NCBI GenBank assembly: GCA_040753215.1
Contig: JBFMEZ010000013.1
Span: 18,911 to 82,910, forward strand
DNA length: 64,000 nucleotides
DNA from: Candidatus Micrarchaeota archaeon
GTDB lineage: Archaea; Micrarchaeota; Micrarchaeia; Anstonellales; Bilamarchaeaceae
Direction of reading: 5' to 3'
Part shown: piece by piece, positions 28,219 through 63,999 of the stretch
Layout: each line of letters opens with the position of its first letter
Numbering within the stretch: position 1 is the stretch's first letter
The notes under the pieces: model-generated
Databases searched by the model: none
Told to the model about the DNA's origin: nothing
What the model saw: the letters and a program-made list of their open reading frames with translations, nothing else
Made by a program: the position numbers and the translations under genes

Positions 28219-29088
28219 ATGCACATCCTTTTCTCCTCCAAAAACCCTGCAAGCAACAATATTGCGCAGAGGCTCATGGAGATGGGCTTCAGCGAAGTTT
28301 CCGGTTCTCCGTATCCAGCTTCCAGAACGGGAAACTCAAACCGTGAAGCCCTGGGAAACCAGGGAAACGAAAGGGCGGCTTCACGGTTTGACAGGGAACA
28401 GGAAACCGGATACTGGGCTTGGAAAGGCCACAGGATGCTGGACACAAAGGTCGGGCTTATCCTTGATGTGCCCACGGATTGGGATGCGGATTGGCTTTTG
28501 GTGCTCTCCACGCACAGAAGCGAGAAGAAATTCCCCGCATTTACTGTGCACATTCCGGGCAACTGGGACAAGGCGGAGATGGGAGGCGAGCCCCGCACCC
28601 TCAACATTGCGTATGCGAGCAGGATGAAGGATTTGCTTCTTGCGCTTAGGGAGAAGAATACTCTGGGGTGGAATGTGAACCAAGAGGTCGACCATCATGG
28701 CCCCACCTGTAAACTTCCGATAATATTCATAGAAATAGGGAGTTCGGAGGAGGAATGGGTGAACCCTAAGGCGGCGGAAATAGTTGCGGAAGCGGTGATA
28801 GATTCCATAAATGAGAAGAAGCTCTATCCATCCTATGTTGGAGCGGGAGGGGGGCATTATGCGCCCTTCTTCACGAAATTGATGCTGGAATCCGAGGATG
28901 CGTTCGGGCACATAATTCCAAAATACCAGGCGGCGAACATCGGTGCGGATACGCTGAAGCAAGCGAAGGAGAAGAATGTGGAGAGGGTGGATACGCTGGT
29001 TTATGAAAACAAATCCTTCAGGGCAGGCGAGCGGGACAGGTTGTTTTCGATAGCGAAAGAGATTGGGCTGGAAGTTGAGATTCGCTAG
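28219..29088 (+). CDS. dtdA: archaeal D-aminoacyl-tRNA deacylase carrying an in-frame repeat insertion
   Basis: S..NPAS.NI, LSTHRS...P.FTVH.PGN, EVDHHGPT, F.EIGS.EEEW, GGGHYAP.F, GHI.PKY. Confidence 0.93.
   Translation: MHILFSSKNPASNNIAQRLMEMGFSEVSGSPYPASRTGNSNREALGNQGNERAASRFDREQETGYWAWKGHRMLDTKVGLILDVPTDWDADWLLVLSTHRSEKKFPAFTVHIPGNWDKAEMGGEPRTLNIAYASRMKDLLLALREKNTLGWNVNQEVDHHGPTCKLPIIFIEIGSSEEEWVNPKAAEIVAEAVIDSINEKKLYPSYVGAGGGHYAPFFTKLMLESEDAFGHIIPKYQAANIGADTLKQAKEKNVERVDTLVYENKSFRAGERDRLFSIAKEIGLEVEIR
28336..28391. repeat. palindromic element, subfamily A copy 1 (intragenic, in frame)
   Basis: TCAAACCGTGAAGCC-26 nt-GGCTTCACGGTTTGA, perfect 15-bp inverted repeat. Confidence 0.9.
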
Positions 29089-29642
29089 CCGAGTCCTGCC
29101 TTTATCTTTTCCAGAAGCATTTCGAATTTCGTATAGCCTGCCTTTTCGTTGAAATGCCCCGCGCTCTTTACAAGAATGATTTCCGTGCCCAGGTTCTTCG
29201 CCAGCTCTTCCGCCTTTTCCAGGGGAACGTATGGGTCGTTATCAGAGTGGAAAACATAGAACTTTTTGCAGTTGTCCCTTATCGCCTTCCAATCGAACTT
29301 TTTTTCAACGAATGTGGTCATTATCTCAGCAAACTCATTTTCGGGAAGAGAACAAAATCCAGCAACAAAGAATGCGGCTTTTGCAGGCTTTCTCTCCAGC
29401 ACGCTGAGCAGGAACGGAACCCCCAGACTATGCCCCACAACTATGGAATTCCCATCGATGTATTTCTCATAGTCCTGAAAAACCTTCAGCCATCTTTCCA
29501 GCGTCTGGTTTTCCGGCGTGGGAAATTTCGGAACAAATACTCTGCAGCCCAGCTTTTCAAGTTCGGATTTCAGCCACGGAAACCAGTTCTCACCCGGGTA
29601 GCCGTAAGCCCCGTGGATTATGAATATGTTGCTCTTTGCCAT
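29085..29642 (-). CDS. YdeN/RBBP9-family alpha/beta hydrolase
   Basis: IHGAYG....NWFPWL, GHSLG, HSDNDPYVP, AGHFN. Confidence 0.93.
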   Translation of the reverse strand: MAKSNIFIIHGAYGYPGENWFPWLKSELEKLGCRVFVPKFPTPENQTLERWLKVFQDYEKYIDGNSIVVGHSLGVPFLLSVLERKPAKAAFFVAGFCSLPENEFAEIMTTFVEKKFDWKAIRDNCKKFYVFHSDNDPYVPLEKAEELAKNLGTEIILVKSAGHFNEKAGYTKFEMLLEKIKAGLG

Positions 29643-29695
29643 CGGCTGGTGTTTGCACCCAACCTATAAAAACCAGCATCCCGGGAACCGGAAAC

Positions 29696-29752
29696 TCAAA
29701 CCGTGAAGCCCTGAGAAAAAGAGGGAAACGAATGGGCGGCTTCACGGTTTAA
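29696..29752. repeat. palindromic element, subfamily A copy 2 (intergenic)
   Basis: TCAAACCGTGAAGCC...GGCTTCACGGTTTAA flanked by GGGAACCGGAAAC and CCGAAAACTGAAA. Confidence 0.9.
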
Positions 29753-29766
29753 CCGAAAACTGAAAA

Positions 29767-29872
29767 TAGCCCCGACCGGATTCGAACCGGTGTCCGAAGG
29801 TCCAGAGCCTTCTTTCAGGACCGGGGTGGCTCGCGCCGCCCGGGTTATCCTTGACCACTAGACGACGGGGCT
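29767..29872 (-). tRNA. tRNA-Gln(CTG) with a 33-nt intron at about position 25/26
   Basis: AGCCCCG/CGGGGCT acceptor stem, GAAGG-CTCTGGA-CCTTC anticodon arm, ACCGG-TTCGAAT-CCGGT T-arm; 106 nt = 73 + 33. Confidence 0.92.
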
Positions 29873-29880
29873 AGCGTTAC

Positions 29881-30450
29881 TTAAAGCGTTAAAACCTTTC
29901 TTAAATCTAACTCTCCGGGCTTCACAATCACAGTCTTCACTTCCGCGCTCTCCCCCGCACCTCTGTCCCAAAAACTGTCCCCTATGAATACCACATCCTC
30001 CCTCCCAAACCCAAGCTCATCCATCAGGCTGAAAATCATATCCGGGTGCGGCTTCGCTTTTTGCACGACGTTCCTTCCTCTTATCGCATCCACCTCAAAC
30101 CCGGCCTTCTCCGCAATCCCCTGTATCAAAGGCACATTATTGTTAGAAGCAATCCCAACCTTGTGCCCGCGCTTCTTAAGCTCCTTCAGGATCTCCCTCG
30201 CCTGTGCGTAGATGAGATATTCGGAATTATCCAGGCATTCCTTTTCATATTTCCAGAAAATCCCGTCCACAACCTTCTTCCTTCCCAGTGTATCGGAAAC
30301 CTGGTTTGCGAGAAGGGCGATGTGGGTTTTGGGGTCCAGCTCTAGCCCTTCCTTCAGCCCGTATTCCAGCACTTCCTGCTTCACCACGTCCCAGTCTATC
30401 CACAGGTGGGCAAGCGTATCATCCAGGTCGAAAATGAATAGCTTTGGCAT
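29881..30450 (-). CDS. HAD-superfamily hydrolase
   Basis: FDLDDTL, ASNN, KPHPD, IGDS..D. Start moved to MPKLF because the ORF-track extension overlaps tRNA-Cys. Confidence 0.92.
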   Translation of the reverse strand: MPKLFIFDLDDTLAHLWIDWDVVKQEVLEYGLKEGLELDPKTHIALLANQVSDTLGRKKVVDGIFWKYEKECLDNSEYLIYAQAREILKELKKRGHKVGIASNNNVPLIQGIAEKAGFEVDAIRGRNVVQKAKPHPDMIFSLMDELGFGREDVVFIGDSFWDRGAGESAEVKTVIVKPGELDLRKVLTL

Positions 30451-30451
30451 T

Positions 30452-30550
30452 AGCCAGGGGAGGGAATCGAACCCCCCTATGCCGGTTTCTTCTGTGGGAT
30501 TTCTCCCCCTGGAGCTGCAGCCGGCCACATAGCCTATCTGTCACCCTGGC
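30452..30550 (-). tRNA. tRNA-Cys(GCA) with a 28-nt intron at 37/38
   Basis: GCCAGGG/CCCTGGC acceptor, U discriminator, GCCGG-CTGCAG[intron]A-CCGGC, TTCGATT T-loop. Confidence 0.92.
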
Positions 30551-30652
30551 AGGCCAGTTTCCGGTTTCCAGTTCCCGGTTTCCAGAATCTGGCCTGGCAA
30601 TACTCTGGTGGGATTAAGGTATTAAAAAGCTACGCCGCTATTTTACCCTGCT

Positions 30653-30758
30653 GGGCCCATAGCTCAGGCTGGTTAGAGCGACGGTCTTATATGGCCTGCT
30701 CTAATACAACAGGTTCTAAGACAGCCGTAGGTCTGGAGTTCAAATCTCCATGGGCCCA
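30653..30758 (+). tRNA. tRNA-Ile(TAT) with a 31-nt intron at 37/38
   Basis: GGGCCCA/TGGGCCC acceptor, ACGGT-CTTATA[intron]A-GCCGT, BHB central helix CTTA/TAAG, TATTAAAA box about 25-33 nt upstream. Confidence 0.93.
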
Positions 30759-31172
30759 ATCTCATTAATTTTGTTGCCGGTTTCCGGTTTCCCGTTTCCG
30801 GAAACTACGTCTGCAAAATTAGGTTTTTCTATTTCCTTTTTTGGCTTGTTTTTGGGGGGTTTCAAATATCTTGGGTTTTGGGCCCTACGGTTTTTGAAAT
30901 CCATATGTTTTTCACCTCATTTCTTGATATTTTTTCTTGATGTTTTTATACTTTTAGGGAGCATGTTTCCGATTAACACGCTCCGCTAGGCACGCCTGTT
31001 GCACGAGACGCGTCAGGCAACGGCCGAAAAAGCCTAGCGCGGAGCCGGTTTCACCTTATAACGTTCTGTATCGCTTCGCGATAACTGGCAGAAACCAGCG
31101 GGTTTCCGCCATCCGGTTCCTTGCTTTGGGGCTTATTTCAGCCTCAATCCATTCCAATTTCAAATTTCCTAG

Positions 31173-31610
31173 CTAATCATCGTCATCACCCCCACTTATC
31201 GCGTGTTTGAGCTTGCAAAGCATCGAACGGACACGCACTAGGCAAGACATGAAATTGAGATGCTCCCTCTGCGGGATGATTTTCAGGGAATTGCACAAGT
31301 CGAGCCAATATTCGGTTTCGTTGGCTTCGCCTATGCAGGTAACCAGCTTCTGGTTCTGTGCCTTCTTGGAATCAATCGCTCCCATCTCCGCCAGGTTCGC
31401 GCAGATGGAAGACGCGGAGGCAAGGAGCTGCTCCTTCGCCCTCCTGCTCATCTGCTTGTCTTCCATAAACTCAAAAATATCTTTTGACAGGCGGAAAGCC
31501 TCCTCATAAACCTTCAAATTCTTGAAGTTCTGCATAACCTCACCATTTTCCGACTTCGCGGCTCTGCTCGTAGAGCGCCCATTTCCTTTCATCAACCTCA
31601 ATTTTCCCAT
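31173..31610 (-). CDS. four-helix-bundle protein (TIGR02436 / IVS-protein-like family)
   Basis: FKNLKVYEEAF.LS, EQL...ASSICANLAE, ..GEANET.YWLDLC. Confidence 0.9.
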   Translation of the reverse strand: MGKLRLMKGNGRSTSRAAKSENGEVMQNFKNLKVYEEAFRLSKDIFEFMEDKQMSRRAKEQLLASASSICANLAEMGAIDSKKAQNQKLVTCIGEANETEYWLDLCNSLKIIPQREHLNFMSCLVRVRSMLCKLKHAISGGDDDD

Positions 31611-31662
31611 TTTCTTCCATGTTTTTCACCACTTCCCTTCCCCGGCTTCTCCTTTCGGGGAA

Positions 31663-31943
31663 GTTTTAGAGCGAGCTTCACTCCGAAGCCCGCGGTTTGA
31701 CGTTTTACGGGCTGAAAGGAGTGAAGCGAGCAAAACTTTCCCACGTCGCAGAAGCAGAGGTCGCTCGTTCGGTGTGAGCGATTATTCGTTTAGGCGAAGC
31801 CGACCTCGGAGCGAAGGCGAAAATGCACATTAATGGTTTCGGTCATTAGACCGAACCCGAAGGGCTCGACCATTAAGTGCTTTTCGCCGAAGCGGAGAGG
31901 GAAACGATTAATGCGAGCACGCCGGAAGGCGAGAACGAGCGAC
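31663..31943. other. highly structured non-coding region (nested inverted repeats; possible ncRNA or MITE/REP-like element)
   Basis: GCTTCACTCC/GGAGTGAAGC (31675-31727); GTCGCTCGTTC/GAACGAGCGAC (31760-31943) enclosing GGCGAAAA..GCAC..TTAATGGT/ACCATTAAGTGCTTTTCGCC and TTCGGTC/GACCGAA. Confidence 0.75.
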
Positions 31944-33124
31944 TATATCACTGAAAGACCGCCAACAATTCTCTTGGTTAAGTCCGATATCCGAGAAAAT
32001 TCCTTATCAACTATCTGCCCGATGGCTTCCCTAATCGAATTAAAGCATTTTCTGCCCGTGCTTAATGAAATTGTTGCATTTGCAGGCATGTCAATAGGAT
32101 GCCCAATTCTTGAAAGCAAATAAACATCTACATTTTCTACAAATGGGAATTCTCTTACAACCCTTTCAGCGATTTCAAATGCAAGAACCGAGTAGATTTT
32201 TCCAGTATGGCTTACCGGATTTTTGCCAGCAGTCGCTTCTAATGTCATCGGCCTGAAAGGAGTAATCAATCCGTTTGCACGGTTCCCTCTCCCGACCGAG
32301 CCATCGTCACCCATCTCCGCACTCGTACCGCTCAAAGTCAGGTATATTGAACCGGCTTCTTCATTATCCGCATTGTTTACCTTTACTCTTACATTTCCGA
32401 TTTCTCTGGTTTCGGCAAAATCTATCACCTCGCGCTCTATGGTCTTTTTGGCTTCTATGTATTCATCCATATTCGTTATATGCCTGGAAACAATCGCAAT
32501 TGCAATAGTAAGCTCTATCCCATCACCGTTTCGCAATCCCATTACCTTTACATCCTCGCCCGCCCAAGGGTATCTCGCCTTAAACTGTTCCGCGTTCAGA
32601 TATTTCTCAACTTCCAATACCAGTTTTTCGAGCCTGCTTAGTGGTGCATAGCCAACCCCAAAACTCGTATCATTGGCTAGTGGAATGCCCGGTCTTCCTG
32701 ACATCTCATCCCACTTCGGCCAGATCTCAGTGATGGTGGATTGTATCGCTACGCCCTTGGAAAGGTCCAGATGCCTTACGCTCCTTCTGATGTGCTCTTC
32801 GGTTGCTTCTCTTGCGATTTCTTCCACAGGAACGCCCCCAAATGCCCTCCCGCTTAATACTATCCGAATTGGTTTCGTAAACCGCCCGCCCCCGAATTCC
32901 ACTTCCGTTGCACCGCCACATACCAGCCCCTTATCCACATTATGATGCCTTACCCTGCTGAATTTGTTGATGTATGCTTCACTTAGGCGACGGCTTACGT
33001 TTTCCATTATGCCGTCTATCAGCGTATCTGGATGGCCGATGCCCTTCCGCTCGACCATTTCAACAGGTCGCTTATGTATCGTTGTCCCGCTGTTCCTTTC
33101 AACAATTATACTTCTCACGTGCAT
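31943..33124 (-). CDS. mat: archaeal-type S-adenosylmethionine synthetase
   Basis: EMVERKGIGHPDT, HHNVDK, P.ANDTSFGVG, GEDVKVMG.R, YLT..GTSAE.GDDG.VGRGNR, AGKNPV.H.GKIY. Confidence 0.96.
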   Translation of the reverse strand: MHVRSIIVERNSGTTIHKRPVEMVERKGIGHPDTLIDGIMENVSRRLSEAYINKFSRVRHHNVDKGLVCGGATEVEFGGGRFTKPIRIVLSGRAFGGVPVEEIAREATEEHIRRSVRHLDLSKGVAIQSTITEIWPKWDEMSGRPGIPLANDTSFGVGYAPLSRLEKLVLEVEKYLNAEQFKARYPWAGEDVKVMGLRNGDGIELTIAIAIVSRHITNMDEYIEAKKTIEREVIDFAETREIGNVRVKVNNADNEEAGSIYLTLSGTSAEMGDDGSVGRGNRANGLITPFRPMTLEATAGKNPVSHTGKIYSVLAFEIAERVVREFPFVENVDVYLLSRIGHPIDMPANATISLSTGRKCFNSIREAIGQIVDKEFSRISDLTKRIVGGLSVI

Positions 33125-34134
33125 CCCTCTTCCCGGAAAGGCTCATGGATGACCATGAAGCCTCGGTTAGTGCCAAAGTAAACATTGCAGCGCATTGTGG
33201 CGTCGCCCAATTCCATCGTACGATGAAGCATCCCCCTTTCTATGCGCTCAAAATGCACATACGAACCGGTATGAAATCCTTCATTTTCTATATAGAAATT
33301 CACAACGACATTGCAGCCCTTATCAAGCAGCTGTTGCACAGCATCCGAAGCTTTCCCTGGGCATGGCCTTCCCATGCAGAAATCGCAGTAGCAGAGTTCG
33401 GCATCATCCGGTTTTCGTGTGGCGCAAGCCAAATCGCTTTGCAGATATACTGCCGTTTCAGGAGCCGCCCCATAGATTCTCTCAATTAGTTTTAGCCATG
33501 CAGCCAGTCTTTTTGTGTATTCCAATACAAGGCCAGCGTTTGGTTTGCTAATGTCCGTAGAATCGACCGAAGCTTCATTATCTGGGCAAATCGAGACTAC
33601 TGATTGGATGCCTCTCCTCTCGGCTACGCCCGCCAAAGTAAGCCCGATGCTTGCCATGGCATTCAGGATTCGCTGATGGTAGAGTGCAAGGTCAAGCCTG
33701 CGAATGCCCGACTCCCTAGTTCCTTCGAAGCCGAGGGCAATGCGTCCTTCATGCTCGCTCAACTGTTGCCCATTTTTCCTTTTTTCTATCACGTCCTTAT
33801 ATTTTGAAGCATACTTCCTGAGGCCTGTGGCTATTGCTACCGAAGGATTCCCAATCTGTACCCCAAGTTTTGAGCCGGCGGGAACACGCCTTAGGAGCGG
33901 CTCGAAATCCGTTTCGACCTTCACCTGCAATGGACTCTTGAATTCTACCCCAACTGGATTGCCATGCTGCACAAATGCGGCAGTAAACAGGCAGGCAAGC
34001 ATCCTTTCTGGGTTTTTTTCTTCTACCGGCTCCTGTTTGCTGAAATAAAAGGCTTTGATCCTGCCTCTCTCGCACAATTCCCTTGCCTTATGCATCGCTT
34101 GCATCATTAACACCCCGAAGCACTCCATTCTCAT
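33115..34134 (-). CDS. hypothetical protein (possible degenerate PRTase-like alpha/beta fold)
   Basis: Operon position between the PLP enzyme and mat; VSICPDNE and AVQQLLDKGCNVV only weakly PRTase-like. Confidence 0.6.
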   Translation of the reverse strand: MRMECFGVLMMQAMHKARELCERGRIKAFYFSKQEPVEEKNPERMLACLFTAAFVQHGNPVGVEFKSPLQVKVETDFEPLLRRVPAGSKLGVQIGNPSVAIATGLRKYASKYKDVIEKRKNGQQLSEHEGRIALGFEGTRESGIRRLDLALYHQRILNAMASIGLTLAGVAERRGIQSVVSICPDNEASVDSTDISKPNAGLVLEYTKRLAAWLKLIERIYGAAPETAVYLQSDLACATRKPDDAELCYCDFCMGRPCPGKASDAVQQLLDKGCNVVVNFYIENEGFHTGSYVHFERIERGMLHRTMELGDATMRCNVYFGTNRGFMVIHEPFREEGCT

Positions 34135-35086
34135 CGAAATAGATTCCAGAGCCGCTGTTTACCACCAGCACAGATTTATCCGATGGAATGGCGGTCTTCC
34201 TTGCAGCGGCGAATGCCACAGCAGCACTTGGCTCCGCCTTTATGCCCACTTTCTTCAGCGCAAGATATGCTGGCATGATTTCGTCTTCTTCAACTACAAC
34301 CACTTCGCCGAATTCAGGGAGAGTCCTCACTATTCTCTCAAACAATTCGGACCAAGGCGTGACCAGCTTTTCTGCAATTGAGCAGGCACCTGGAGCCGTA
34401 TCACCAGCGAATATGTTGGCCCCCACGGTCGCTGCGAACAGCCGCGGCAGATTTTCTCCGGCTCTGTGCAGTTCATCAAGAAGATATAGCAGAGAATTTA
34501 CCGCCTCTCCCCCGCCCAGAGGCATGAAAATGGCATCTGGTTTTTCAGCAACAACCTCTTCTGCAAGGTGCATATAGCTAAATGCATAATTCTCGGCATC
34601 TATGCAATCCCTTTTGTCGTCCTTTATCCCGGTTTTTGCTGCTTCTAAAATTTCCTGCCGTGTGAAAATCTTTTTTTGCAATGGCAATCTTACAAGAACA
34701 GAATGCCTTTCAAGCACTTTCTGTATCCTAAGGTCCAGCTCTTCGTCTATTATGCTTACCGCAAGGACGCCATCTTCCCTGGCAACTTCGTTGATTTGGT
34801 TGTACTCATCCGCCACATTCCCAAGGCTGTGGCCTGCGGTAGTGTAGACTATAGAGTATAGAGCAGGGTTTCTCGCCCCAAAATCATTCACCAGCCTTGC
34901 ACTGCGGTAGTCCTTGAATGTGCCCGAAGAAAAACCGCCCGAGGTCCGAACCGCACTGCAATCTTTTATCAGCAGGTTATTTTTTCCGCAGAATTCTTCC
35001 ACACTAGGGTTTCTAAGAACTGGCGCAGGAACTATAACGACTCCTTTTCTCTCCATACGTTTGCTCATCATATCATCAATTATCAC
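34088..35086 (-). CDS. PLP-dependent fold-type II enzyme (threonine synthase/cysteine synthase-like)
   Basis: SGTFKDY Schiff-base Lys motif, TTAGHSL, PLGGGE phosphate loop, EPSAAVAFAA, VNSGSG. Confidence 0.85.
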   Translation of the reverse strand: MIIDDMMSKRMERKGVVIVPAPVLRNPSVEEFCGKNNLLIKDCSAVRTSGGFSSGTFKDYRSARLVNDFGARNPALYSIVYTTAGHSLGNVADEYNQINEVAREDGVLAVSIIDEELDLRIQKVLERHSVLVRLPLQKKIFTRQEILEAAKTGIKDDKRDCIDAENYAFSYMHLAEEVVAEKPDAIFMPLGGGEAVNSLLYLLDELHRAGENLPRLFAATVGANIFAGDTAPGACSIAEKLVTPWSELFERIVRTLPEFGEVVVVEEDEIMPAYLALKKVGIKAEPSAAVAFAAARKTAIPSDKSVLVVNSGSGIYFDENGVLRGVNDASDA

Positions 35087-35167
35087 AAACGATTAATATA
35101 AAATCTACCATCAATTTTTCTGACAAAAATGGTTAATAATTTAAATTATTACATCTATGTCCTAATA

Positions 35168-36157
35168 ATGCCTTACAAGATTGATAACATAGACCGACGA
35201 ATCCTCTTTGAGCTCGACAAGAATTGCCGGATAAGCGACAACCAGATTGCTAAGCTTGTTGGCAGGAGCAGGGAGTCTGTCGGCTATAGAATCAAACAGC
35301 TTCAAAAGAAAGGCATACTGCAAGGTTTTCTTACGTCCATAAACCCCAGCAAATATGGCTACATGTTCTTCAAGCTGTATTTTCAGCTTGCAAACATCCC
35401 GAAGGAACGTGAGCGGTTTTTCGAGTATATGAAGAAATTGCCTGGCCTATACTGGATAGGGATTAATGATGGTGTCTGGGACACCCATGCAACCCTGTAT
35501 GCCAAGAATGTAAAGGAATTTTATAAGATAAAAAATCAGATTTATTCGGAGTTCAAGGATTTGATAATCAAGCGGGATACCGGAGTTTTGGTTAATGTAA
35601 GGCAGTACAAGAAAAAATACCTCATAGAAGATGGGAGCAAAATACCGGATTATGATTCTTGTGTCATGTTTTCAGATGATATTGTTCCTAACGAAATTGA
35701 CGAGCTTGACAGAAAAATCCTCAATATACTGCTGAACAATGCCAGGATTCCACTTGTGGATCTGGCCAAACAAACCAAATCTACGGTTGATGTAGTCCGA
35801 AACAGGATGAAGAAGTTGCAGGAAAAGGGAATAATCCTGCAATACAGAATTGCAGTGGACCATTCAAAACTCGGTTATGAATTTTTCAAGGCTTTTCTGT
35901 ACTTTAACAACCTTAGCGAAGAAGACGAGCAAAGATTGTTCGAATATGCAAAGGGGCATCCGAGCATCATATATCTCATAAGGCAGGTTTCAAGCTGGGA
36001 TGTTGAGCTGGAGATGGTTTGTAAGAGCTACGAAGATTTCACTTCCATCATGAACGATATTCGAAAAAGATTCGCAACCTCTTTGAGAAACTATGAATCT
36101 GTCTTTATGAAGGAGGATATCTGGGTGTTTGGCGAGAAGGATATTTTTGAAAAATAA
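35168..36157 (+). CDS. tandem-duplicated Lrp/AsnC-family regulator
   Basis: Two units, IDNIDRRIL.EL..NCR and IDELDRKIL..L..NAR, each with HTH and RAM domain. Confidence 0.92.
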   Translation: MPYKIDNIDRRILFELDKNCRISDNQIAKLVGRSRESVGYRIKQLQKKGILQGFLTSINPSKYGYMFFKLYFQLANIPKERERFFEYMKKLPGLYWIGINDGVWDTHATLYAKNVKEFYKIKNQIYSEFKDLIIKRDTGVLVNVRQYKKKYLIEDGSKIPDYDSCVMFSDDIVPNEIDELDRKILNILLNNARIPLVDLAKQTKSTVDVVRNRMKKLQEKGIILQYRIAVDHSKLGYEFFKAFLYFNNLSEEDEQRLFEYAKGHPSIIYLIRQVSSWDVELEMVCKSYEDFTSIMNDIRKRFATSLRNYESVFMKEDIWVFGEKDIFEK

Positions 36158-36160
36158 AAT

Positions 36161-36189
36161 GAGCGCCGGAAGGCGAGAACGAGCGACTA
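36161..36189. repeat. partial copy of the 3' end of the 31760-31943 structured element
   Basis: GAGCGCCGGAAGGCGAGAACGAGCGACTA matches about 31915-31945 except for a 2-nt gap. Confidence 0.85.
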
Positions 36190-36221
36190 CAATCGGTTTG
36201 ACAGAACAATCAGAAAAGTAG

Positions 36222-36878
36222 CTATGGAACAGCTGGGTCAATCAAATTCTTCTGTTCAGGTGTGCCGAGATACTCCTGTTTTGCCTCGTTATCAAATTCC
36301 GGCCTTATCATTTTTGCACGGAGCTGAGCAGAAAGGGAGAGTTCCCTTTCGGGCTTTATCACTAAGCCCTCCATGGCGGAGTTTCTTCCTGTGATTGGAT
36401 CCACTGCGTATGCTGATGTAATAGACATCAGAGGAGAAAGCTCGGACGCGTCACGGAAATTTCCTGATGCAACTATTGGCACCGGGAAGAAATCTGCCGG
36501 AACCGTGTCCGGTACGCACAACAGCCCTTTGCGTATATCGGATGATAGATGCATTCTGCCTTCCGAATCAAGGAAAACCTCTTTTTCCATGTCAAAAATG
36601 TCAAAAACCGCATATCTGCCCGGGATTCTATAAAAAACTGAACGCATCACGAGCAAATCTTCTGCAAAGACAAGGTATCTGCACCCTGCAAGGAATGCGC
36701 GCGGCTCTCCGTCCATCTTTTCTTCCACAACTACTTTCCTTGCGAAAAGTGCGCGAAGCTGTTCCGGAGTCAGGTGGTTTTTTGTCAGCGGCATCCCATC
36801 TGCAGCGATTCTCCTTGGCTTGAAATACCGCACCTGCGGGAACCTATGGTCGCATAAAATGCCGTTGTCGTTATACAT
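36222..36878 (-). CDS. RNA ligase family (Rnl2-like adenylation domain)
   Basis: Motif I EEKMDG, FAE, FDIFD, motif IV EGLVIK, motif V RAKMIRPEF. Confidence 0.88.
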   Translation of the reverse strand: MYNDNGILCDHRFPQVRYFKPRRIAADGMPLTKNHLTPEQLRALFARKVVVEEKMDGEPRAFLAGCRYLVFAEDLLVMRSVFYRIPGRYAVFDIFDMEKEVFLDSEGRMHLSSDIRKGLLCVPDTVPADFFPVPIVASGNFRDASELSPLMSITSAYAVDPITGRNSAMEGLVIKPERELSLSAQLRAKMIRPEFDNEAKQEYLGTPEQKNLIDPAVP

Positions 36879-36888
36879 CGCAATCCCT

Positions 36889-39329: not shown

Positions 39330-39430
39330 TTTACCACTATTAATAAACATCCAGAGCTTATTTTATGCTTTATCCTCCCAAAAGAGACTATTAAGCAAAC
39401 AATTAAATACCCGGAAAGGGAAAACAAACC

Positions 39431-40159: not shown

Positions 40160-40162
40160 AAC

Positions 40163-40181
40163 GAGCACGCCGGAAGGCGAG
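40163..40181. repeat. third partial copy of the structured-element 3' end
   Basis: GAGCACGCCGGAAGGCGAG, identical to the 3' part of the 31760-31943 element, 3 nt after the TrmB stop. Confidence 0.8.
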
Positions 40182-40258
40182 GAAAAAGTTTGGAAACTTT
40201 GTCCGCTACTGGAAATCCCGGATTCCCGATTCAAGAATGAGAGACTATATCCTATCCT

Positions 40259-40284
40259 CATTAGTGAGAGAGTTCTCACTAATG
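40259..40284. terminator. perfect hairpin between convergent units
   Basis: CATTAGTGAGA-GAGT-TCTCACTAATG. Confidence 0.45.
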
Positions 40285-40492
40285 TTAGTCCCGGACTTCA
40301 TATGCAATTAGATTATCAAATTCCCGGTTTCTGCAGTAAGGCAGGGATGCGGCCAGATCTATTGCTTCTTCCTTCGAACCCGCTTCCACCCTACCGATAA
40401 CGACCGCATCTTCGGTTTCCCCGAACGCCATTCTTCATCAGAAATTCGGTTCTGACCGATTTTCCAACTTCCAATACTATGTAGTTTGCCAT
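40285..40492 (-). pseudogene. possible small ORF broken by a single-base frameshift
   Basis: MANYIVLEVGKSVRTEF in one frame continues as ..AFGETEDAVVIGRVEAGSKEEAIDLAASLPY... in the +1 frame; 208 nt = 69 codons + 1. Confidence 0.3.
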
Positions 40493-40501
40493 GCGAACAC
40501 C

Positions 40502-41973: not shown

Positions 41974-42090
41974 ATTCCGGCCCTCCAGAAACTGCCGTGC
42001 AGCTTCTTTTATTCCATCGTTTAAAAAGGTTCTTGGGGTTCTTTTCCGTTATCAATTAAACCCCAGACTTCAGTTTGCCTTAATAGCAAA

Positions 42091-42112: not shown

Positions 42113-42127
42113 ATTGTTATATATCGG

Positions 42128-51651: not shown

Positions 51652-51656
51652 CCAAC

Positions 51657-54416: not shown

Positions 54417-55556
54417 TCATAACCCCCCATCAAATAGTATAGCACTTTCCCTGGTCCTTATCTTCTGCGACCTCACATCCGCAATCCTTTCCTTCACCGC
54501 GGCAATCCTTCCAGAAAATCCTATTCTCTCCCCAATCCGAATAAGGATCTCATCCACTGGTATATGCCTCCCCCCCAGCACCGAATTCCCCACAACCATG
54601 CATCCGCACGGCGCAATCCTTTTCAAATTCCGCAGCACCCTCTCCATGTCCGCAAAATACGTCCCCGCGATGGGGATATCCAGATAATCATCCGCCTCCG
54701 GAGGCGCATCCCCAAACGATTCCCCGGTTATGAAGCCCCTCACTTCTTTCGCCCGCATTATTTTCGTACTATCTTTTTCCATGGTCAATAGGCTCAGCTC
54801 CAGCCCATAAACTTTGGAATAATCTATATAGTTCAGGTAGGGCGGCGAGGTCACGAACGCATCCGCCTTCCAATCCTCGAACTCCCGCGCATCTTCCAAT
54901 TTTAATTCCGGCTCCACAGTCAGTTTCCTGTTCCCCGTTTCCGGTTTCCTTTCTCTCTCCCGCAAATCCGCAACCATCCTCTTCACTTTCCGTTTAAACG
55001 CATCCTTAACCGGCATGGCGCTTTTCGAGGGCTCCTCCCGCAAGACCCCCCCATCCTTTATGAAAAATCCCACCTGCGGCAAAATAGATAGCAGCGCAAG
55101 CAAAAACAGCCCGCCCACCCCCTCATTCTCAATTTCCTCAATGCTTTCCCTCAAATGTCGTATATCGTTATAGTTCCTCTTCCCGAAAAACCGCGAAGGA
55201 TGGAACAGCTCAAACTGCCATATCCACCCCGGCTCTTTCCGTTCCTTAAACATCCCTTTCAATTCCCTCTCCGCCTCCTCCGCGTCCTTTTCCGAATAGT
55301 CCGCGCATTTCGTTTTCGTCACAAACAGCGCGAGGGGCGAAACATCTATCCCAATCCCCTTCATCCCGTGCTCCTTCGCATAGAGCATAGTAGTCCCGAT
55401 TCCGCAGAAAGGGTCGAACACTGTCCCGCCCTTCACTCCAAGCTCGCCCAATGCCCACTCCACCAATTGCGGAGAGTATGCCTCCTTGTAATAGAACCAG
55501 TTGTGCACGGGAATATCCTTCGCAGGCTCGAAGGTGAAATAGTCCCCTATTTCCAT
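54417..55556 (-). CDS. orphan DNA amino-methyltransferase (N4-C/N6-A)
   Basis: H.W..YKEAYSP.LV, VFDPFCGIGTT motif I, VTSPPY motif IV, VVGNS. Confidence 0.88.
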   Translation of the reverse strand: MEIGDYFTFEPAKDIPVHNWFYYKEAYSPQLVEWALGELGVKGGTVFDPFCGIGTTMLYAKEHGMKGIGIDVSPLALFVTKTKCADYSEKDAEEAERELKGMFKERKEPGWIWQFELFHPSRFFGKRNYNDIRHLRESIEEIENEGVGGLFLLALLSILPQVGFFIKDGGVLREEPSKSAMPVKDAFKRKVKRMVADLRERERKPETGNRKLTVEPELKLEDAREFEDWKADAFVTSPPYLNYIDYSKVYGLELSLLTMEKDSTKIMRAKEVRGFITGESFGDAPPEADDYLDIPIAGTYFADMERVLRNLKRIAPCGCMVVGNSVLGGRHIPVDEILIRIGERIGFSGRIAAVKERIADVRSQKIRTRESAILFDGGL

Positions 55557-56821: not shown

Positions 56822-56871
56822 TCGGTTTCCCGTTTCCCGCTTCCAGTTACCCGTATTCGGTTGCCGTTCCA

Positions 56872-57258: not shown

Positions 57259-57283
57259 AGGATACACCGTTTCCGGTTCCATG

Positions 57284-57339
57284 TCAAACCGTGAAGCCAC
57301 GGGAAACCAAGGGAACGATTGGGCAGCTTCATGGTTTGA
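57284..57339. repeat. palindromic element, subfamily A copy 3 (between divergent genes)
   Basis: TCAAACCGTGAAGCC...AGCTTCATGGTTTGA followed by GTTTCCCGTTTCCAG. Confidence 0.88.
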
Positions 57340-57395
57340 GTTTCCCGTTTCCAGCAAACATAGGGATTTTATCCCTTCTCTTAATAACCCTACCC

Positions 57396-57875
57396 ATGGC
57401 AGTGCTGCAAAAGATACACACATCCGGAAGGATGATGTACGCAAAGGCAGTCCTCATAGCCCTCATCGCGGCATTCGCGTGGGCGCAGATAGAGAAATTC
57501 CTCAGGCTGAATTACGCTGTCGTGTACCCGGCAATCGCCGCCTTCGCAATACTTATAATTATTGTCGCGTTCGTGCGCTCCAGGCTCCAGTCCCTGGAGA
57601 TAACCGACGAGGGGGTGACCTCCCGCCTCGGCATCATAAACGTGAAGACGCAGTTCATCCCGTACAGCAAGATTGATTCGGTCAATGTGTCCCGCACGGT
57701 TTTCGACCGCATATTCATGCTCGGCACCCTCCGCATAGACACGCTCGCCAGCATAGGGACCGAAACCGTGATGAGCGGCATCCCCTCCAGAAACCTGGAG
57801 GAGGCGCTGAAGGCGATACAGTCAAGGATACACCCGGGTGGCCGCAGTGAAGGAGTCCCTCCTTATAGAAGATGA
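57396..57875 (+). CDS. bPH_2 (bacterial PH) domain membrane protein
   Basis: Two TMs then LEITDEGV....GII......IPYSKID.VNVSR..FDRIF.LGTL.I.T. Confidence 0.88.
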   Translation: MAVLQKIHTSGRMMYAKAVLIALIAAFAWAQIEKFLRLNYAVVYPAIAAFAILIIIVAFVRSRLQSLEITDEGVTSRLGIINVKTQFIPYSKIDSVNVSRTVFDRIFMLGTLRIDTLASIGTETVMSGIPSRNLEEALKAIQSRIHPGGRSEGVPPYRR

Positions 57876-58302
57876 AAAAAAAGCGCGCCGCCTCATCCTC
57901 CTCGGAGCGATGGAGGAAGATGGAAAGGTCCGCCTCCCTTATCTGGAGGCCGCATATTTCGCGGAGAAAGGGGAGATAGAGGGAGGTGCAGAGGAATTCA
58001 TCACCCTTGCGCAGAAATCCGACCCGCTCGCCCCGGAAAAATATTTAGTTCTAAAGCAGCTCCGCGATTCCGGCTACATTGTGCGCACAGGCGAATCAGC
58101 GGATTTCCTCCGCGTATATAAAAAAGGGATAAGGGTGGGCGAGGACCGCACTGCCTACCTCCTCCGCGTATTGAGAAAGGGCGAATCCCCGGACCTGCAC
58201 GCGGATTTGAGGCTCGCCGGAAAGATGCGCAAGGAACTAGTTTATGCTTTTGTGGGAGAAAAAATAGAGTTCATAAAAGTCATGCGTGTGAATTTCGAGT
58301 AA
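57838..58302 (+). CDS. single-unit tRNA-splicing-endonuclease-like protein lacking the catalytic motifs (beta/structural-type)
   Basis: L.YLEAAYF.EKG, YLV.K.LRD.GY.VR, DF.RVY, YAFV; lacks G.KFG and the His/Lys motifs. Confidence 0.75.
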   Translation: MAAVKESLLIEDEKKARRLILLGAMEEDGKVRLPYLEAAYFAEKGEIEGGAEEFITLAQKSDPLAPEKYLVLKQLRDSGYIVRTGESADFLRVYKKGIRVGEDRTAYLLRVLRKGESPDLHADLRLAGKMRKELVYAFVGEKIEFIKVMRVNFE

Positions 58303-60287: not shown

Positions 60288-60536
60288 ATGACAAGTGAGA
60301 TAAATGTGACTTTTCGTAATGTCGATAGGGATGTTCTGCAGGATTTCAGGGCAGAGGCGGTAAGGGAAAACAGAACATTCGGGCAGGCGCTGGCCGAAGC
60401 CCTTCTTCTATGGCTGCAGCACAGAAGGATGGCCCGCAAAAAGAAAATGAAGCTCTCTGCTTCGAAACCTCTCGACTTCGGCCCCGGCACGGAGCGGCTG
60501 AGCGAAAGGGCAGACGAGATTCTTTACGGCCGGTGA
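60288..60536 (+). CDS. vapB: VapB-like antitoxin (RHH-type)
   Basis: VTFRNVD......FRA.A......GQAL.EAL; DFG.GTE.LSE..DEILYG; overlaps the PIN gene. Confidence 0.8.
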   Translation: MTSEINVTFRNVDRDVLQDFRAEAVRENRTFGQALAEALLLWLQHRRMARKKKMKLSASKPLDFGPGTERLSERADEILYGR

Positions 60537-60934
60537 TTGGCATCTCCGTGCTCCTGGACACCTCTTTTCTGGTTGCCTATTATGACAAAAGGGACCAGAA
60601 CCATCCAGCTGCAGTCCGGCTGGTCGGAGAGCTCGAAACAGGGAAGTTTGGCAGGCTCATAATTTCAGAGTATGTTTTTGACGAACTGATGACAATCCTG
60701 AAAAAATTTGTGGGAAAAGCAAAGGCTGCTGAAAAGGGCAGGGACATCCTGAACTCGCTTGATTTCCTCCAGGCGGATTCCAAAGTGTTCCAGCTTGGCT
60801 GGGAGCTTTTCAAAAAATCCGAGGGATTGAGTTTCACCGACTGCTATCTGGTCGCTGCGATGAAACACTACAACATTGAGTATCTGGCTACCTTTGATTC
60901 CGGATTTCATGGCATTGTGAAGGTTTTGCGGTAG
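60533..60934 (+). CDS. vapC: VapC PIN-domain toxin
   Basis: LLDTSFLVA, D.NH, V.DE..T, LSFTDC, ATFD.GF. Confidence 0.92.
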   Translation: MIGISVLLDTSFLVAYYDKRDQNHPAAVRLVGELETGKFGRLIISEYVFDELMTILKKFVGKAKAAEKGRDILNSLDFLQADSKVFQLGWELFKKSEGLSFTDCYLVAAMKHYNIEYLATFDSGFHGIVKVLR

Positions 60935-61013: not shown

Positions 61014-62159
61014 GTGAAACTCGTCTTTGATGGAAAAGAAATATATGCAGAAGACGCGGAGAACGTAAGCTCCCTGGCAAAAGGGTTCTTCGGGAAGATA
61101 AAAGGAGGAAAGGTTTTCCTCTCCCCGGGGGAGGCCCTTTACCTTATGGACAACCGCAACGCGGAGTGCGCAAGCCCGGGCGGAAGACCCATCCGATTCA
61201 ATTCCCTTGCCTCCTCCTTTTCCAAATCGCCCAAGCTCCTCGCCCGCTACCTGGTTTTGAAGGACTGGAGGGAGCGCGGCCTCATCGCCCGCGATGCAAA
61301 GGAAATACTGGGAAAATTCAGCCGCTCCGCAGCGGTAAGCTATCCGAGCTCGCCCTTCCCTCTTCCCCCCGTCTCACTCAGCGGCGTCTTCTTCCCTGAG
61401 GATATGCTCACAACAATAGATTCCCCCGAAGGGAAAAAACTCTATGAGGAAGGATGGTTCGGCCAGTTCGGCACATACAAGGCGGCTCACAAGGGAAAAA
61501 TCACAAAGCTGGACGCATTCGAAACCCTTTATCTCCTAAAGAAAGGCATCCTCGCAGTCCCGGATTCCAGTTTCAAGAAAATACTCTCCCATGCTGAAAG
61601 GCGAATCCATTTCTTCCAGGAGATGTATGAAGTATATGAAGACTGGAGGGAGAAGGGCTTCGTGGTAAAGACCGGGTTCAAGTTCGGCTCCCATTTCCGC
61701 ATATATTTCCCAGGCGCCTCGCCGGTGAAGGGCGGGGAATGGGCCCACTCAAAGCACGTCCTCCATGTATTTCCGAGGAAGAGCAAGCTCCTCATCTCCG
61801 AGTGGTCCCGCGCAATACGCCTCGCCCATTCCGTGAAGAAGACGTTCATACTCGCGGTTCCCGGAAAGAAAGCAAAGCCCATCCGGATCTGCGACTTCGC
61901 CCTCTACCACAGGAAGGGCGCGGAATGCGAAACCCCCAAATCCGGAGAGCCGTCCTTCCTCGCCCTCGCCCTCACCGAGGACGAATACCTGGGGGGGATA
62001 GAGTTCGCCCAGGCCCTGGAGGAGTGCGCGGAGCGCGGCCTCGAGCTGGTAATCGCAATCGCGGACCGCGAAACCTCCGTAACGTATTACTTAATAAAGA
62101 AAGTAAATCTTCCCGGAAGCAGATTCGACTATTTCGAAATCCGGTGGCTCAACCCCTAG
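61014..62159 (+). CDS. endA: tRNA-intron endonuclease, three-unit epsilon-like architecture
   Basis: 381 aa; non-catalytic unit (LSPGEALYL, YLV.KDWRERG), catalytic unit (VKTGFKFGSHFRIY, HSKH, AHSVKK), terminal beta-like unit (IAIADRETSVTYY). Confidence 0.92.
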   Translation: MKLVFDGKEIYAEDAENVSSLAKGFFGKIKGGKVFLSPGEALYLMDNRNAECASPGGRPIRFNSLASSFSKSPKLLARYLVLKDWRERGLIARDAKEILGKFSRSAAVSYPSSPFPLPPVSLSGVFFPEDMLTTIDSPEGKKLYEEGWFGQFGTYKAAHKGKITKLDAFETLYLLKKGILAVPDSSFKKILSHAERRIHFFQEMYEVYEDWREKGFVVKTGFKFGSHFRIYFPGASPVKGGEWAHSKHVLHVFPRKSKLLISEWSRAIRLAHSVKKTFILAVPGKKAKPIRICDFALYHRKGAECETPKSGEPSFLALALTEDEYLGGIEFAQALEECAERGLELVIAIADRETSVTYYLIKKVNLPGSRFDYFEIRWLNP

Positions 62160-62542: not shown

Positions 62543-62596
62543 TCAAACCAAACCCCCGCTTTCGCGCCTCATTTTGGCTCTGGAGGTTTGGTTTGA
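62543..62596. repeat. palindromic element, subfamily B copy 1 (supplies the stop codon of the HD gene)
   Basis: TCAAACCAAACC...GGTTTGGTTTGA perfect 12-bp IR, then GTTCCCGGTTTCCGGAAAC. Confidence 0.85.
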
Positions 62597-63120
62597 GTTC
62601 CCGGTTTCCGGAAACTTGGCCTGCGCACCCGGCATCTATCTAAAAATTCCCTGGAAATTTTTATTCTTGGATTTCCAACCCGTTTCCCTTCTTTTGTGTA
62701 GAATTTGGCTTTGTTTATGTTTCGGAGCATTATCCTGAGTGTCTCTTCAGTCGTCTGTTTTCTTTCCTTCCCTGCCTGCAATGCCTTCCGGATTCCGAAT
62801 TTCCCGACCGCCTCAAGGAGATTCGCATCGCTCACCAGTTTTTCTTCTACCGATTCCGGCTTTGTGGTATGGCGATACAATGCCCGTAGATAGGATTTGG
62901 GGAATCCCATGCGCAGGATTTGCTGTTTATGTTTCTGCACGTAACCCTTCAGCCCATGGAAATAAATCAGAAACCATAGCTTGCCATCATCGATTCTGGA
63001 GTAGCCTTTCCTCAGCCTTGCGACCTTTGCCCTTATCCGTAGGATATGGCTGAAATTATGCATGCTGTCCTTTTTCCTGTAAAGCGGCTCTACGAACCTT
63101 ATGATTTCCTTTGTCCGCAT
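62569..63120 (-). CDS. HD-domain-like protein
   Basis: HNFSHILR, YFHGL, DANLLEAVG.FGI.K. Confidence 0.75.
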   Translation of the reverse strand: MRTKEIIRFVEPLYRKKDSMHNFSHILRIRAKVARLRKGYSRIDDGKLWFLIYFHGLKGYVQKHKQQILRMGFPKSYLRALYRHTTKPESVEEKLVSDANLLEAVGKFGIRKALQAGKERKQTTEETLRIMLRNINKAKFYTKEGKRVGNPRIKISREFLDRCRVRRPSFRKPGTQTKPPEPK

Positions 63121-63121
63121 G

Positions 63122-63478
63122 CTATTTGCCTTCCGCCTTTTCAAGCTCAGAAAGCATTTTGCTTATCTGTGGCTTTACCCTGAGTATTTCTTCGGTGGCA
63201 ACCTTCCAGACAATCTGCTCGTCAATCCCGAAATACTCGTGGATGAGCTTATCGCGCATCCCCGCCATCTTCTTCCATGGAACATCCGGGTATTGCTTCT
63301 GCAAGGATGCGGGAACTTTCTTTGACGCTTCGCCTATTATCTCAAGGCTGCGCACGACAGCATTTATTGTTTTCCTGTCGTCCATGAAACCAGCCAGGGA
63401 TAAGCGAGAAGTGAAGTTTTCTATGTCCTTTATCGACTCAAGAATGTCCTGCAGGTAATCCAGGTATTCCCTCTTCAT
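63122..63478 (-). CDS. hepT: HEPN (DUF86) RNase toxin
   Basis: AVVRSLEIIGEA, PW..M.GMRDKLIHEYFG Rx4-6H motif. Confidence 0.93.
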   Translation of the reverse strand: MKREYLDYLQDILESIKDIENFTSRLSLAGFMDDRKTINAVVRSLEIIGEASKKVPASLQKQYPDVPWKKMAGMRDKLIHEYFGIDEQIVWKVATEEILRVKPQISKMLSELEKAEGK

Positions 63479-63768
63479 ATGTAAACCGCCTCCTGCAGTA
63501 TGTGGCGGCCTATGCGGGGCTTCAGCGCCCTCTTTGAAACGAGGTCCACTTCAACTCCGACCAGCTTCTCGAGGTATTCCTCAAGGTCCATGAAATGAAA
63601 AAGCCCAACCGGCTCGCGGAATTCCACCAGCACGTCCAGGTCGCTCTTTTTCTTCTGCTTCCCCCGGACATAGGACCCGAATAGCCCAAGGGACTTGACC
63701 TTGAAGCGGTCCTGCATCTCTTTCTTGTGGCCGGAGAGTATCCGCACAAACTCTTCGAGTTTTTTCAA
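63475..63768 (-). CDS. mntA: minimal nucleotidyltransferase (MNT) antitoxin
   Basis: LFGSYVRG.Q...SDLDVLVEF, VDLV...ALKP; TTG start with GGTGA upstream. Confidence 0.93.
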   Translation of the reverse strand: MKKLEEFVRILSGHKKEMQDRFKVKSLGLFGSYVRGKQKKKSDLDVLVEFREPVGLFHFMDLEEYLEKLVGVEVDLVSKRALKPRIGRHILQEAVYI

Positions 63769-63816
63769 TTCCTTCACCAGTAGGAGTATCCGGCTGCTTA
63801 TGTGAACTACCACCGG

Positions 63817-63999
63817 TCAAAGACCGGTGGCTTCCTGCTTCGTAGAAGATACTTGCCCATTATGTTTATAATAGGTAGAGGCCTCCTCTTGACAGGCATA
63901 ACTAAACCGAACCTCCGCTCTTTCCGTCCCACTTCTGCTCTGGAGGTTCGGTTTACTTCCCGCAGTTCCTGCGGTAGCTCTTCTCAGCATATTTATCGC
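63817..63999 (-). CDS. tnpB: C-terminus of a second TnpB (partial)
   Basis: AINMLRRATAGTAGS[KPNLQSRSGTERAEVRFS]YACQEEASTYYKHNGQVSSTKQEATGL*. Confidence 0.88.
   Translation of the reverse strand, partial: AINMLRRATAGTAGSKPNLQSRSGTERAEVRFSYACQEEASTYYKHNGQVSSTKQEATGL
63903..63955. repeat. palindromic element, subfamily B copy 2 (in-frame insertion in tnpB)
   Basis: TAAACCGAACCTCC...GGAGGTTCGGTTTA perfect 14-bp IR; absent from tnpB copy 1. Confidence 0.9.

Follow-up and report, generated by a model that had tools for sequence, protein, structure and literature searches.

Short palindromic elements that lie both between and within genes have been described under several names. The Rickettsia palindromic elements (RPEs) occur between genes and in frame in conserved protein genes, where they add a peptide that is tolerated, and no dedicated transposase is known for them (PMC2229807, PMC10969869); they are bacterial, 105-146 bp long, and tagged with CGTC at one end (PMC3733652; PMC2229807). 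Repetitive extragenic palindromes (REPs) are 20-40 bp long, carry a GTAG or CGTC tag, are mostly extragenic, and usually number in the hundreds, with a RAYT gene that is itself flanked by REPs (PMC3733652). Miniature inverted-repeat transposable elements, or MITEs, are non-autonomous, have terminal inverted repeats, and sit between or within genes, where in-frame fusions are possible (PMC2229807, PMC10969869). They usually measure 100-400 bp, and a defined target-site duplication goes with them, as does a parent insertion sequence with the same inverted repeats. Palindromic repeats are reportedly also present inside open reading frames (ORFs) of a different archaeal lineage, with a different sequence, and we know of no link between that family and heptamer tracts. 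Here we describe five palindromes, denoted A1, A2, A3, B1, and B2, in a 64,000-nt stretch of DNA (hereafter the window: positions 18,911 to 82,910 of the forward strand of contig JBFMEZ010000013.1, assembly GCA_040753215.1) from a Candidatus Micrarchaeota archaeon. With a probability that we put at roughly 0.6, they are copies, in two subfamilies, of a lineage-specific, small, non-autonomous palindromic insertion element that targets tracts of the heptamer GGAAACN.

An earlier, sequence-only reading of the window had likened these palindromes to RPEs, and the comparison is apt: they lie in frame in conserved protein genes whose ORFs stay open, adding 19 residues to D-aminoacyl-tRNA deacylase (DtdA) and 18 to one of two TnpB proteins (copy 2). 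Unlike RPEs, they are 53-57 bp long, archaeal, and untagged, have no sequence similarity to RPEs, and use a defined register in heptamer tracts that is not reported for RPEs. Like REPs and REPINs, which are associated with the Y1 transposase RAYT, they are short hairpins in which the structure and a short foot are kept while the stem sequence varies, they show no consistent target duplication and are occasionally found inside genes, and they probably move as single-stranded DNA (ssDNA). In contrast to REPs, every copy is free of GTAG, CTAC, CGTC, and GACG both at its ends and beside them, two of the copies are intragenic, only five were seen in 64 kb, and the loop of these 53-57-nt elements is long and filled with heptamers; no gene for a RAYT (Y1/HUH transposase) was found among the ~60 ORFs of the window scanned against Pfam. 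As in MITEs (Correia/NEMIS, RUP, ERIC, and those of Sulfolobus and haloarchaea), the ends are inverted repeats, here with arms of 13-15 bp that are 96% paired, but duplication is absent or ambiguous, and the sole insertion sequence in the window has unrelated ends. Elements of the IS200/IS605 family, which have subterminal hairpins and miniature derivatives (PATE-type), insert 3' of a short specific target without duplication, much as the elements here follow GGRAAC; the difference is that a single symmetric hairpin would need to act as both ends here, and that the ends of the resident element are unrelated to the A and B arms. Because the palindromes differ from RPEs, REPs, and MITEs in length or tag, have no consistent target duplication, and are without a RAYT gene or a parent insertion sequence in the window, and because no sequence match was found in the collections searched, we class the palindromes as miniature palindromic insertion elements of a DPANN archaeon, a family that appears to be undescribed but of a known (RPE-, REP-, or MITE-like) kind.

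Three copies belong to subfamily A, all on the plus strand. A1 (28336-28391, 56 nt, arms TCAAACCGTGAAGCC and GGCTTCACGGTTTGA) lies in frame in the DtdA gene. A2 (29696-29752, 57 nt) lies 54 nt upstream of the start codon of a Ser_hydrolase gene and 14 nt 3' of an intron-bearing tRNA gene on the minus strand (29767-29872; 42.6 bits with the Rfam tRNA model), which is directly upstream of A2 in its own sense. A3 (57284-57339, 56 nt) occupies the divergent spacer between an RNase H gene (minus strand) and a bPH_2 gene (plus strand). The two copies of subfamily B are on the minus strand: B1 (62543-62596, 54 nt, arms TCAAACCAAACCTCC and GGGGGTTTGGTTTGA on that strand) and B2 (63903-63955, 53 nt), which with one extra base adds 54 nt in frame to tnpB copy 2. 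From the five copies we built a covariance model; searched unfiltered across the entire window, it recovered these five only, at 53-73 bits (A1, 68.6; A2, 73.3; A3, 62.4; B1, 53.4), the next best hit scoring 13.9 bits. All five hairpins claimed by the sequence-only reading are therefore present; a possible sixth copy that it had listed at 26372-26419 shows no arms by eye and was rejected because the covariance model gave no hit there. To gauge chance expectation, we counted perfect 12-bp stems with loops of 15-35 nt over the whole window and in 100 Markov-1 simulations. The window has 11 overlapping hits at five places, against a simulation mean of 0.12 hits; the places are A1, A2, B1, B2, and a palindrome inside tnpB copy 1, and A3, which has no perfect 12-bp stem, was for that reason missed. 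The fold z-scores of the hairpins, as RNA and as DNA, range from -3.5 to -6.2 relative to shuffles, and their ssDNA folds are stable (-11.6 to -18.8 kcal/mol).

In each copy, two terminal inverted arms of 15 nt pair into a stem of 13-15 bp and enclose 24-27 nt that are GGAAACN heptamer sequence. All five copies have in common the outer 7 nt of these arms, T(C)AAACC and GGTTT(G)A, and the inner 8 nt are subfamily specific (subfamily A, TCAAACCGTGAAGCC; subfamily B, TCAAACC(A/G)AACCTCC). The inner stems of A and B differ at almost every position, and complementarity is kept: 96% of arm cells are paired, seven of the 15 pairs are altered on both sides between A and B, and B1 and B2 differ by one further A-U/G-C swap. 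Neither the covariation score nor the percentage of paired cells was reached by any of 500 shuffles, and slid controls collapsed. Nearly the entire inner stem was thus replaced without loss of complementarity between the arms. Subfamily A copies differ from one another at 1-3 of 30 arm positions (3-10%) and by 19-30% in their loops. The loops of A and B are 46-63% identical in opposite orientation versus 28-32% in the same orientation, B being related to A in reverse. With a mean match of 0.67-0.76 (maximum 0.88), the loops of subfamily A are as similar to the window's ordinary heptamer tracts as they are to one another (0.74-0.85). Of the earlier description of conserved arms and variable loops, the first half stands; the loops are heptamer-tract sequence, and their apparent variability reflects a low-complexity tract, so the family-specific part is the 15-nt arm pair. 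A C-to-T change noted in A3 does yield a G-U pair, but A3 also has a C-A mismatch and B1 a wobble on the other strand, and the G-U pair is therefore uninformative on RNA versus DNA; with wobbles on both strands, we rejected it as a sign of function at the RNA level.

The junctions have a constant register. With the copies oriented by their flanks, all five read GGRAA(C/G), then T(C)AAACC...GGTTT(G)A, then C or G; the left flanks are gggaaac, cggaaac, gggaaac, cgggaac, and cgggaag, and every element begins with T(C)AAACC. The insertion point is therefore directly after GGRAA(C/G), and in four of the five copies it falls between two heptamer units, in agreement with the earlier claim that four copies sit in heptamer tracts, which are GGAAACN tracts. 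There is no consistent target duplication: B2 is flanked by ACT on both sides, and the others share a lone C. The internal heptamers of A3 run in the opposite direction to its flanking heptamers, and its flanks match those of A1 in reverse complement (93-96%) for 10-15 nt beyond the arms, a reversal that fits either insertion in both orientations or inversion by recombination between the arms.

That the copies reached their present places by insertion is evident from empty sites for A1, A3, and B2, as the sequence-only reading had supposed in calling them inserted; they are not conserved structures. The DtdA gene that hosts A1 (PF04414, 28219-29088, plus strand) encodes 289 aa versus ~255 aa in homologues. 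A1 is preceded by a heptamer tract (28292-28335) of GTTTCC-type units ending in a GGGAAAC that abuts the element, and is followed on the plus strand by CAGGGAAC AGGAAAC CGGATAC (28392-28418), which is kept in the hairpin-less tract of two relatives (loci L001 and L002). The homologues from these loci (P0003 and P0002, respectively) have a 12-13-aa insert at the place of A1, encoded by a heptamer tract of 36-39 nt without a hairpin; this tract reads ..GGGAAAC(T/C)G(G/A)AAAC and then GCGGAACAGGAAACCGGATGCTGG, and the window reads ..GGGAAAC, the 56-nt hairpin, and then CAGGGAACAGGAAACCGGATACTGG. The hairpin is thus placed exactly between ..GGAAAC and GCGGAACAGGAAACCGGAT, with a net gain of 57 nt for a 56-nt palindrome. 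Two other relatives (L003 and L004) have neither tract nor hairpin at this site, nor do the other close homologues that were aligned have any insert. The 57 nt are in frame, and DtdA gains 19 aa from the hairpin within an insert of 34 aa. In an AlphaFold model of DtdA (pTM 0.83), residues 33-62 form an unstructured loop between two strands and the rest is a confident fold; the prediction for the A1 insert is thus one of disorder, as a loop of an enzyme that is otherwise well folded.

The empty site for B2 is paralogous. The window has two copies of tnpB, both on the minus strand; B2 lies in the 3' end of copy 2 (63817-64000), which encodes an intact protein of 400 aa (P0241) that extends past the window, and the 3' end of copy 1 with the right end of its element (43271-43373) provides the comparison. 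The two copies share a 103-nt direct repeat that is 92% identical (43271-43373 versus 63801-63903), and the alignment resumes right after the hairpin: copy 1 reads GTTACT followed directly by TCCCACAGTTCCTGCGG, and copy 2 reads ATAACT, 51 nt, and ACTTCCCGCAGTTCCTGCGG. TnpB copy 2 accordingly carries KPNLQSRSGTERAEVRFS (18 aa, 54 nt, in frame), and copy 1 has nothing there. For A3, the RNase H/bPH_2 spacer of four relatives (L128, L129, L131, and L132, the last being the closest, with 86% EndA identity) is 46 nt long and lacks the entire heptamer-hairpin-heptamer block, which in the window spans ~93 nt (57269-57361) and consists of GTTTCCGGTTCCATG, A3, and GTTTCCCGTTTCCAGCAAACAT. B1 abuts a heptamer tract (62597-62615, GTTCCCG GTTTCCG GAAAC), and the tract and B1 together encode the C-terminal tail (...RKPGTQTKPPEPK and stop) of a hypothetical 191-aa ORF (62569-63144, minus strand). 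B1 provides the last nine codons and the TGA, and the tail is 10-20 aa longer than in homologues. In relatives a PRC-barrel gene is directly followed by RNase HII; in the window, the hypothetical ORF, a HepT/MNT pair, and tnpB copy 2 come after B1. The earlier statements that two copies lie in frame inside coding sequences (A1 in DtdA and B2 in tnpB copy 2) and that one supplies a stop codon (B1) were both right. The two intragenic inserts (57 and 54 nt) are multiples of three, and these copies keep the reading frame of the host gene open, adding 18-19 residues in a loop or a tail.

The tracts themselves are unusual. Tracts of three to six GTTTCCN/GGAAACN units number 12 in the window (9393-9412, 10331-10370, 30557-30583, 30780-30805, 46981-47014, 48504-48530, 48641-48686, 49530-49556, 51979-51991, 54923-54949, 56825-56837, and 62597-62615) versus three in 831 kb of unrelated bacterial loci. 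Some occupy spacers or flank tRNA genes, and others are in frame within genes (an N6/N4 methylase gene, and DtdA of relatives); in the methylase gene the tract adds ~21 nt (ERKPETGNRKLTV versus KDGR--GK). All 12 members of the main tract repeat family have one orientation, on the plus strand, regardless of gene strand, and nearly all tracts are on one chromosomal strand over >50 kb. L003, the locus of the nearest relative, has tracts at orthologous places (3258-3284, 3471-3497, and 6701-6727), on both sides of tRNA-Ile and after pmbA/tldD; none were found in L004 or in L128-L131. The tracts are thus of greater age and wider distribution than the hairpins; they, too, behave as insertions, and the hairpins preferentially target them. 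The tract 5' of the tRNA gene at 30452-30550 is bracketed by a direct repeat, CCTGGCA (30544-30550 and 30593-30599), which is identical to the 7 nt at the start of the tRNA and may represent a target duplication of 7 bp; it is not seen at the orthologous tract of L003. In IMG/VR, 13 viral contigs (L133-L145) have cleaner (GTTTCCN)4-8 arrays, some in inverted pairs (e.g., L144, 8611-8669; L135, 4373-4420), and the two that were checked are of tailed phages, with terminase and portal genes. None of the 13 has hairpins of the A/B family, and they give no link to this lineage.

No further copy turned up elsewhere. Nine loci of relatives (~80-86% protein identity, ~107 kb in total) have none. A strict subfamily A pattern gave seven hits in JGI metagenomes, all of them unrelated, as their loops and flanks are different and lack heptamers; in IMG/VR, neither the A nor the B pattern had a hit; and BLASTN of A1 with its flanks found no match among phage and plasmid records. 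At the gathering threshold, Rfam recognized only a 5S rRNA and a tRNA in the whole window, and at E <= 1 over 29500-30900, which includes A2, nothing on the hairpin. When all open frames of the five hairpins were concatenated and searched against 5.8 billion proteins, the only match was TnpB copy 2 itself (E = 8.6), a weak negative, as sensitivity is marginal for 18-aa matches. In a genome collection, a degenerate two-arm pattern was too loose and matched at least 116 unrelated hairpins, the matches listed all being in bacterial records. The claim that the family is lineage specific is hence borne out as far as we searched, and restriction of the elements to this lineage is supported, if not exhaustively; the claim that it is not a described family likewise held in Rfam, the phage and plasmid records, the JGI metagenomes, and IMG/VR. 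The homologues are labeled Micrarchaeota, Anstonellales, or '(I)ainarchaeum', in keeping with the DPANN host proposed from the sequence, and an assignment to Micrarchaeota specifically is plausible. The further claim that the element is still active found no support, as the copies differ by 11-24%.

In both same-subfamily pairs the start-to-start distance is exactly 1360 nt (A1 to A2, 28336 and 29696; B1 to B2, 62543 and 63903), a coincidence for which we estimate a chance of ~0.4% among ten pairwise distances and offer no mechanism. The A1-A2 and B1-B2 intervals have no common sequence and contain unrelated genes. The idea that the hairpins are the ends of a cargo-carrying element of this length was rejected, since the intervals are unrelated and no transposase lies between the hairpins.

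We favor mobilization in trans by an enzyme encoded elsewhere, which would read the AAACC foot along with the structure formed by the hairpin or the inverted arms and would have the GGAAAC heptamer as its target. One candidate is an HUH/Y1-type single-strand transposase, as for REP/RAYT and IS200/IS605, which would fit the lack of duplication, the insertion 3' of a short motif, the conservation of structure over sequence, and the formation of the same stem by both strands. Two tnpB copies of IS200/IS605-type elements are in the genome, and a single-strand transposition system has therefore been present in the lineage. Another candidate is a transposase that binds heptamers; those within the element would be its binding sites, and the tracts outside would make attractive targets. 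Once inserted, the copies would be passive, and those between genes may add a stable hairpin to transcripts, for example 3' of a tRNA or in the 5' leader that RNase H has gained. Several observations weigh against the insertion-element interpretation. No transposase was found among the ~60 ORFs scanned, in which tnpB and a 159-aa integrase fragment are the only mobile-element genes, and the hairpin at the ends of the tnpB insertion sequence is another one (CCACCGGTC..GACCGGTGG). Target duplication is ambiguous, and just two or three empty sites are informative. Recombination, too, could explain why four of the five copies are found in tracts and have flanks that resemble each other. With five copies seen, at the divergence given above, neither abundance nor recent activity is established, and the looseness of the genome-collection pattern means that absence from other genomes is only partly tested.

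Recombination of this kind is the substance of an explanation that needs no transposase and that we consider unlikely but worth serious attention, namely that the hairpin had a single origin within a heptamer tract and then reached other tracts by recombination or ectopic gene conversion, the repeated heptamers providing the homology on its flanks. It would account for the equal register of four of the five copies in tracts, the 93-96% match of the A1 and A3 flanks for 10-15 nt past the arms, the lack of a clear target duplication, loops that are tract sequence, and neighboring pairs (A1/A2 and B1/B2) that are each of one subfamily. However, B2 lies in tnpB, where a resemblance to heptamers is confined to the left flank and missing from the right one (GTTATGCC); the A3 site of relatives lacks any tract, so that under gene conversion the recipient tract must have arrived first; flank homology of 10-20 nt is short; and A3 is inverted relative to its own flanks. 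An idea that we think somewhat less probable still goes further than an insertion element, making the hairpins and the GGAAACN tracts two products of a single, so far undescribed, sequence-specific DNA-writing or insertion process of this DPANN lineage. Behind it are the tracts as lineage-specific insertions, the same heptamers within the hairpins, the fixed register, the strand bias, and the 1360-nt pairs.

It is distinctly improbable that the hairpins are functional signals at the RNA or DNA level (a terminator, a processing or stability signal, or a protein-binding cruciform) under site-by-site selection. Such signals would explain a stem kept by two-sided changes, the positions of A2 14 nt 3' of a tRNA, of B1 between convergent genes, and of A3 in a promoter spacer, as well as heptamer tracts that flank tRNA genes at orthologous places in a relative; yet two copies are in frame in coding sequence, where no signal is needed, the sites are empty in close relatives with the same genes, orientation to transcription is mixed (three sense, two antisense), Rfam has no match, and wobble pairs occur on both strands. 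A promoter and terminator scan of the window used bacterial models and is not meaningful for an archaeon. The edges of genes missing in relatives, where A2 and B1 lie (Ser_hydrolase; the hypothetical ORF with HepT/MNT), and the same-subfamily pairs as direct repeats exactly 1360 nt apart would suit attC-like recombination sites bounding mobile gene cassettes, attC sites being imperfect palindromes of similar size with core sites RYYYAAC and GTTRRRY, set in cassette arrays next to an IntI integrase. We give this very little credence, as A1 and B2 are inside genes, neither the left end (CTCAAAC) conforms to RYYYAAC nor the right end (GTTTGAC) to GTTRRRY, there is no neighboring integron integrase (the sole candidate is the 159-aa integrase fragment 20 kb away), and the A1-A2 interval starts in the middle of a conserved housekeeping gene. 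Scarcely credible, finally, is the removal of the intragenic copies from mRNA, intron-like, by a broad-specificity splicing endonuclease of the lineage. Two EndA paralogues (57838-58302, 154 aa; 61014-62159, 381 aa, of the three-unit type) and three intron-bearing tRNAs are in the window, but the stems are perfect helices without 3-nt bulges and their purine-rich flanks are unable to pair, so a bulge-helix-bulge motif, with two 3-nt bulges on either side of a 4-bp helix, cannot form; moreover, both inserts are stop-free multiples of three, as expected if translated. On anatomy we rejected an attC site, a bulge-helix-bulge intron, and a CRISPR repeat alike.

The spacer between DtdA and an HAD hydrolase gene is a hot spot for gene turnover: a LAGLIDADG endonuclease gene occupies it in L003 (1850-2392) and L004 (10838-11509), the window has the Ser_hydrolase gene, A2, and the intron-bearing tRNA there (29085-29872), and L001 has nothing. 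The window has three tRNA genes of ~100 nt (29767-29872, minus strand; 30452-30550, minus strand; 30653-30758, plus strand), which from their length carry introns; ARAGORN missed two of the three, and these were found with the Rfam tRNA model only. An ~11.7-kb block of lower G+C (0.44-0.50) lies at ~30800-42600 between tRNA-Ile and the gene for a conserved 206-aa membrane protein, which are ~150 nt apart in L003. It contains genes for SAM synthetase, asparagine synthase, an RNA ligase, AsnC/TrmB regulators, and a Schlafen/AlbA_2 ATPase, ends with the 159-aa integrase fragment (42128-42607), and is probably an element integrated at this tRNA. Genes of the toxin-antitoxin type are an AbiEii/AbiEi pair (12028-13343), a PIN-domain protein after a small ORF (60410-60934), and the HepT/MNT pair (63122-63813), the last within an accessory block bounded by B1 and tnpB copy 2.

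The tnpB copies belong to an IS200/IS605-type element with tnpB only (43271-44600 and 63801 to beyond 64000, both on the minus strand); their proteins are 78% identical and have an OrfB_IS605 domain and a Cas12f-like TNB domain. No tnpA lies in the window, and copy 1 is missing from the orthologous spacer of L003. The element ends are hairpins with a 9-bp stem and a 3-nt loop, CCACCGGTC(TGC/TTT)GACCGGTGG, and because this hairpin is a different one, the A/B palindromes were rejected as ends of the resident element. Inside copy 1 is the 42-nt palindrome (43398-43439) found by the stem scan, with a perfect 12-bp stem (TTTGCCAAACGG/CCGTTTGGCAAA); it encodes 14 aa (FAKRSTEQAGRLAK) that are missing from copy 2 and is a second in-frame palindromic indel in the tnpB tail. 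With 10 bits under the covariance model, it was rejected as a member of the A/B family.

Should the family amount to a few old copies only, it would be a relic of the usual sort, and its interest would be modest. Were hairpins and tracts the work of one single-strand mechanism coupled to replication and equipped with an enzyme of its own, they would make up a mobile micro-element system of a new type and not another REP or MITE family. In characterized TnpB elements the 3' end of tnpB encodes the scaffold of the guide RNA, and B2, lying in that end, is a natural experiment on how well a guide RNA and a protein tail tolerate insertion. The fixed register in heptamer tracts provides a concrete target motif, and the two arm variants, changed in concert, a natural test of specificity; together they would make a search for the mobilizing enzyme feasible. 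DPANN archaea have very small genomes that are usually described as streamlined, and a selfish palindrome that writes peptides into a housekeeping enzyme and into TnpB would mean that such small genomes, too, carry and tolerate mobile micro-elements.

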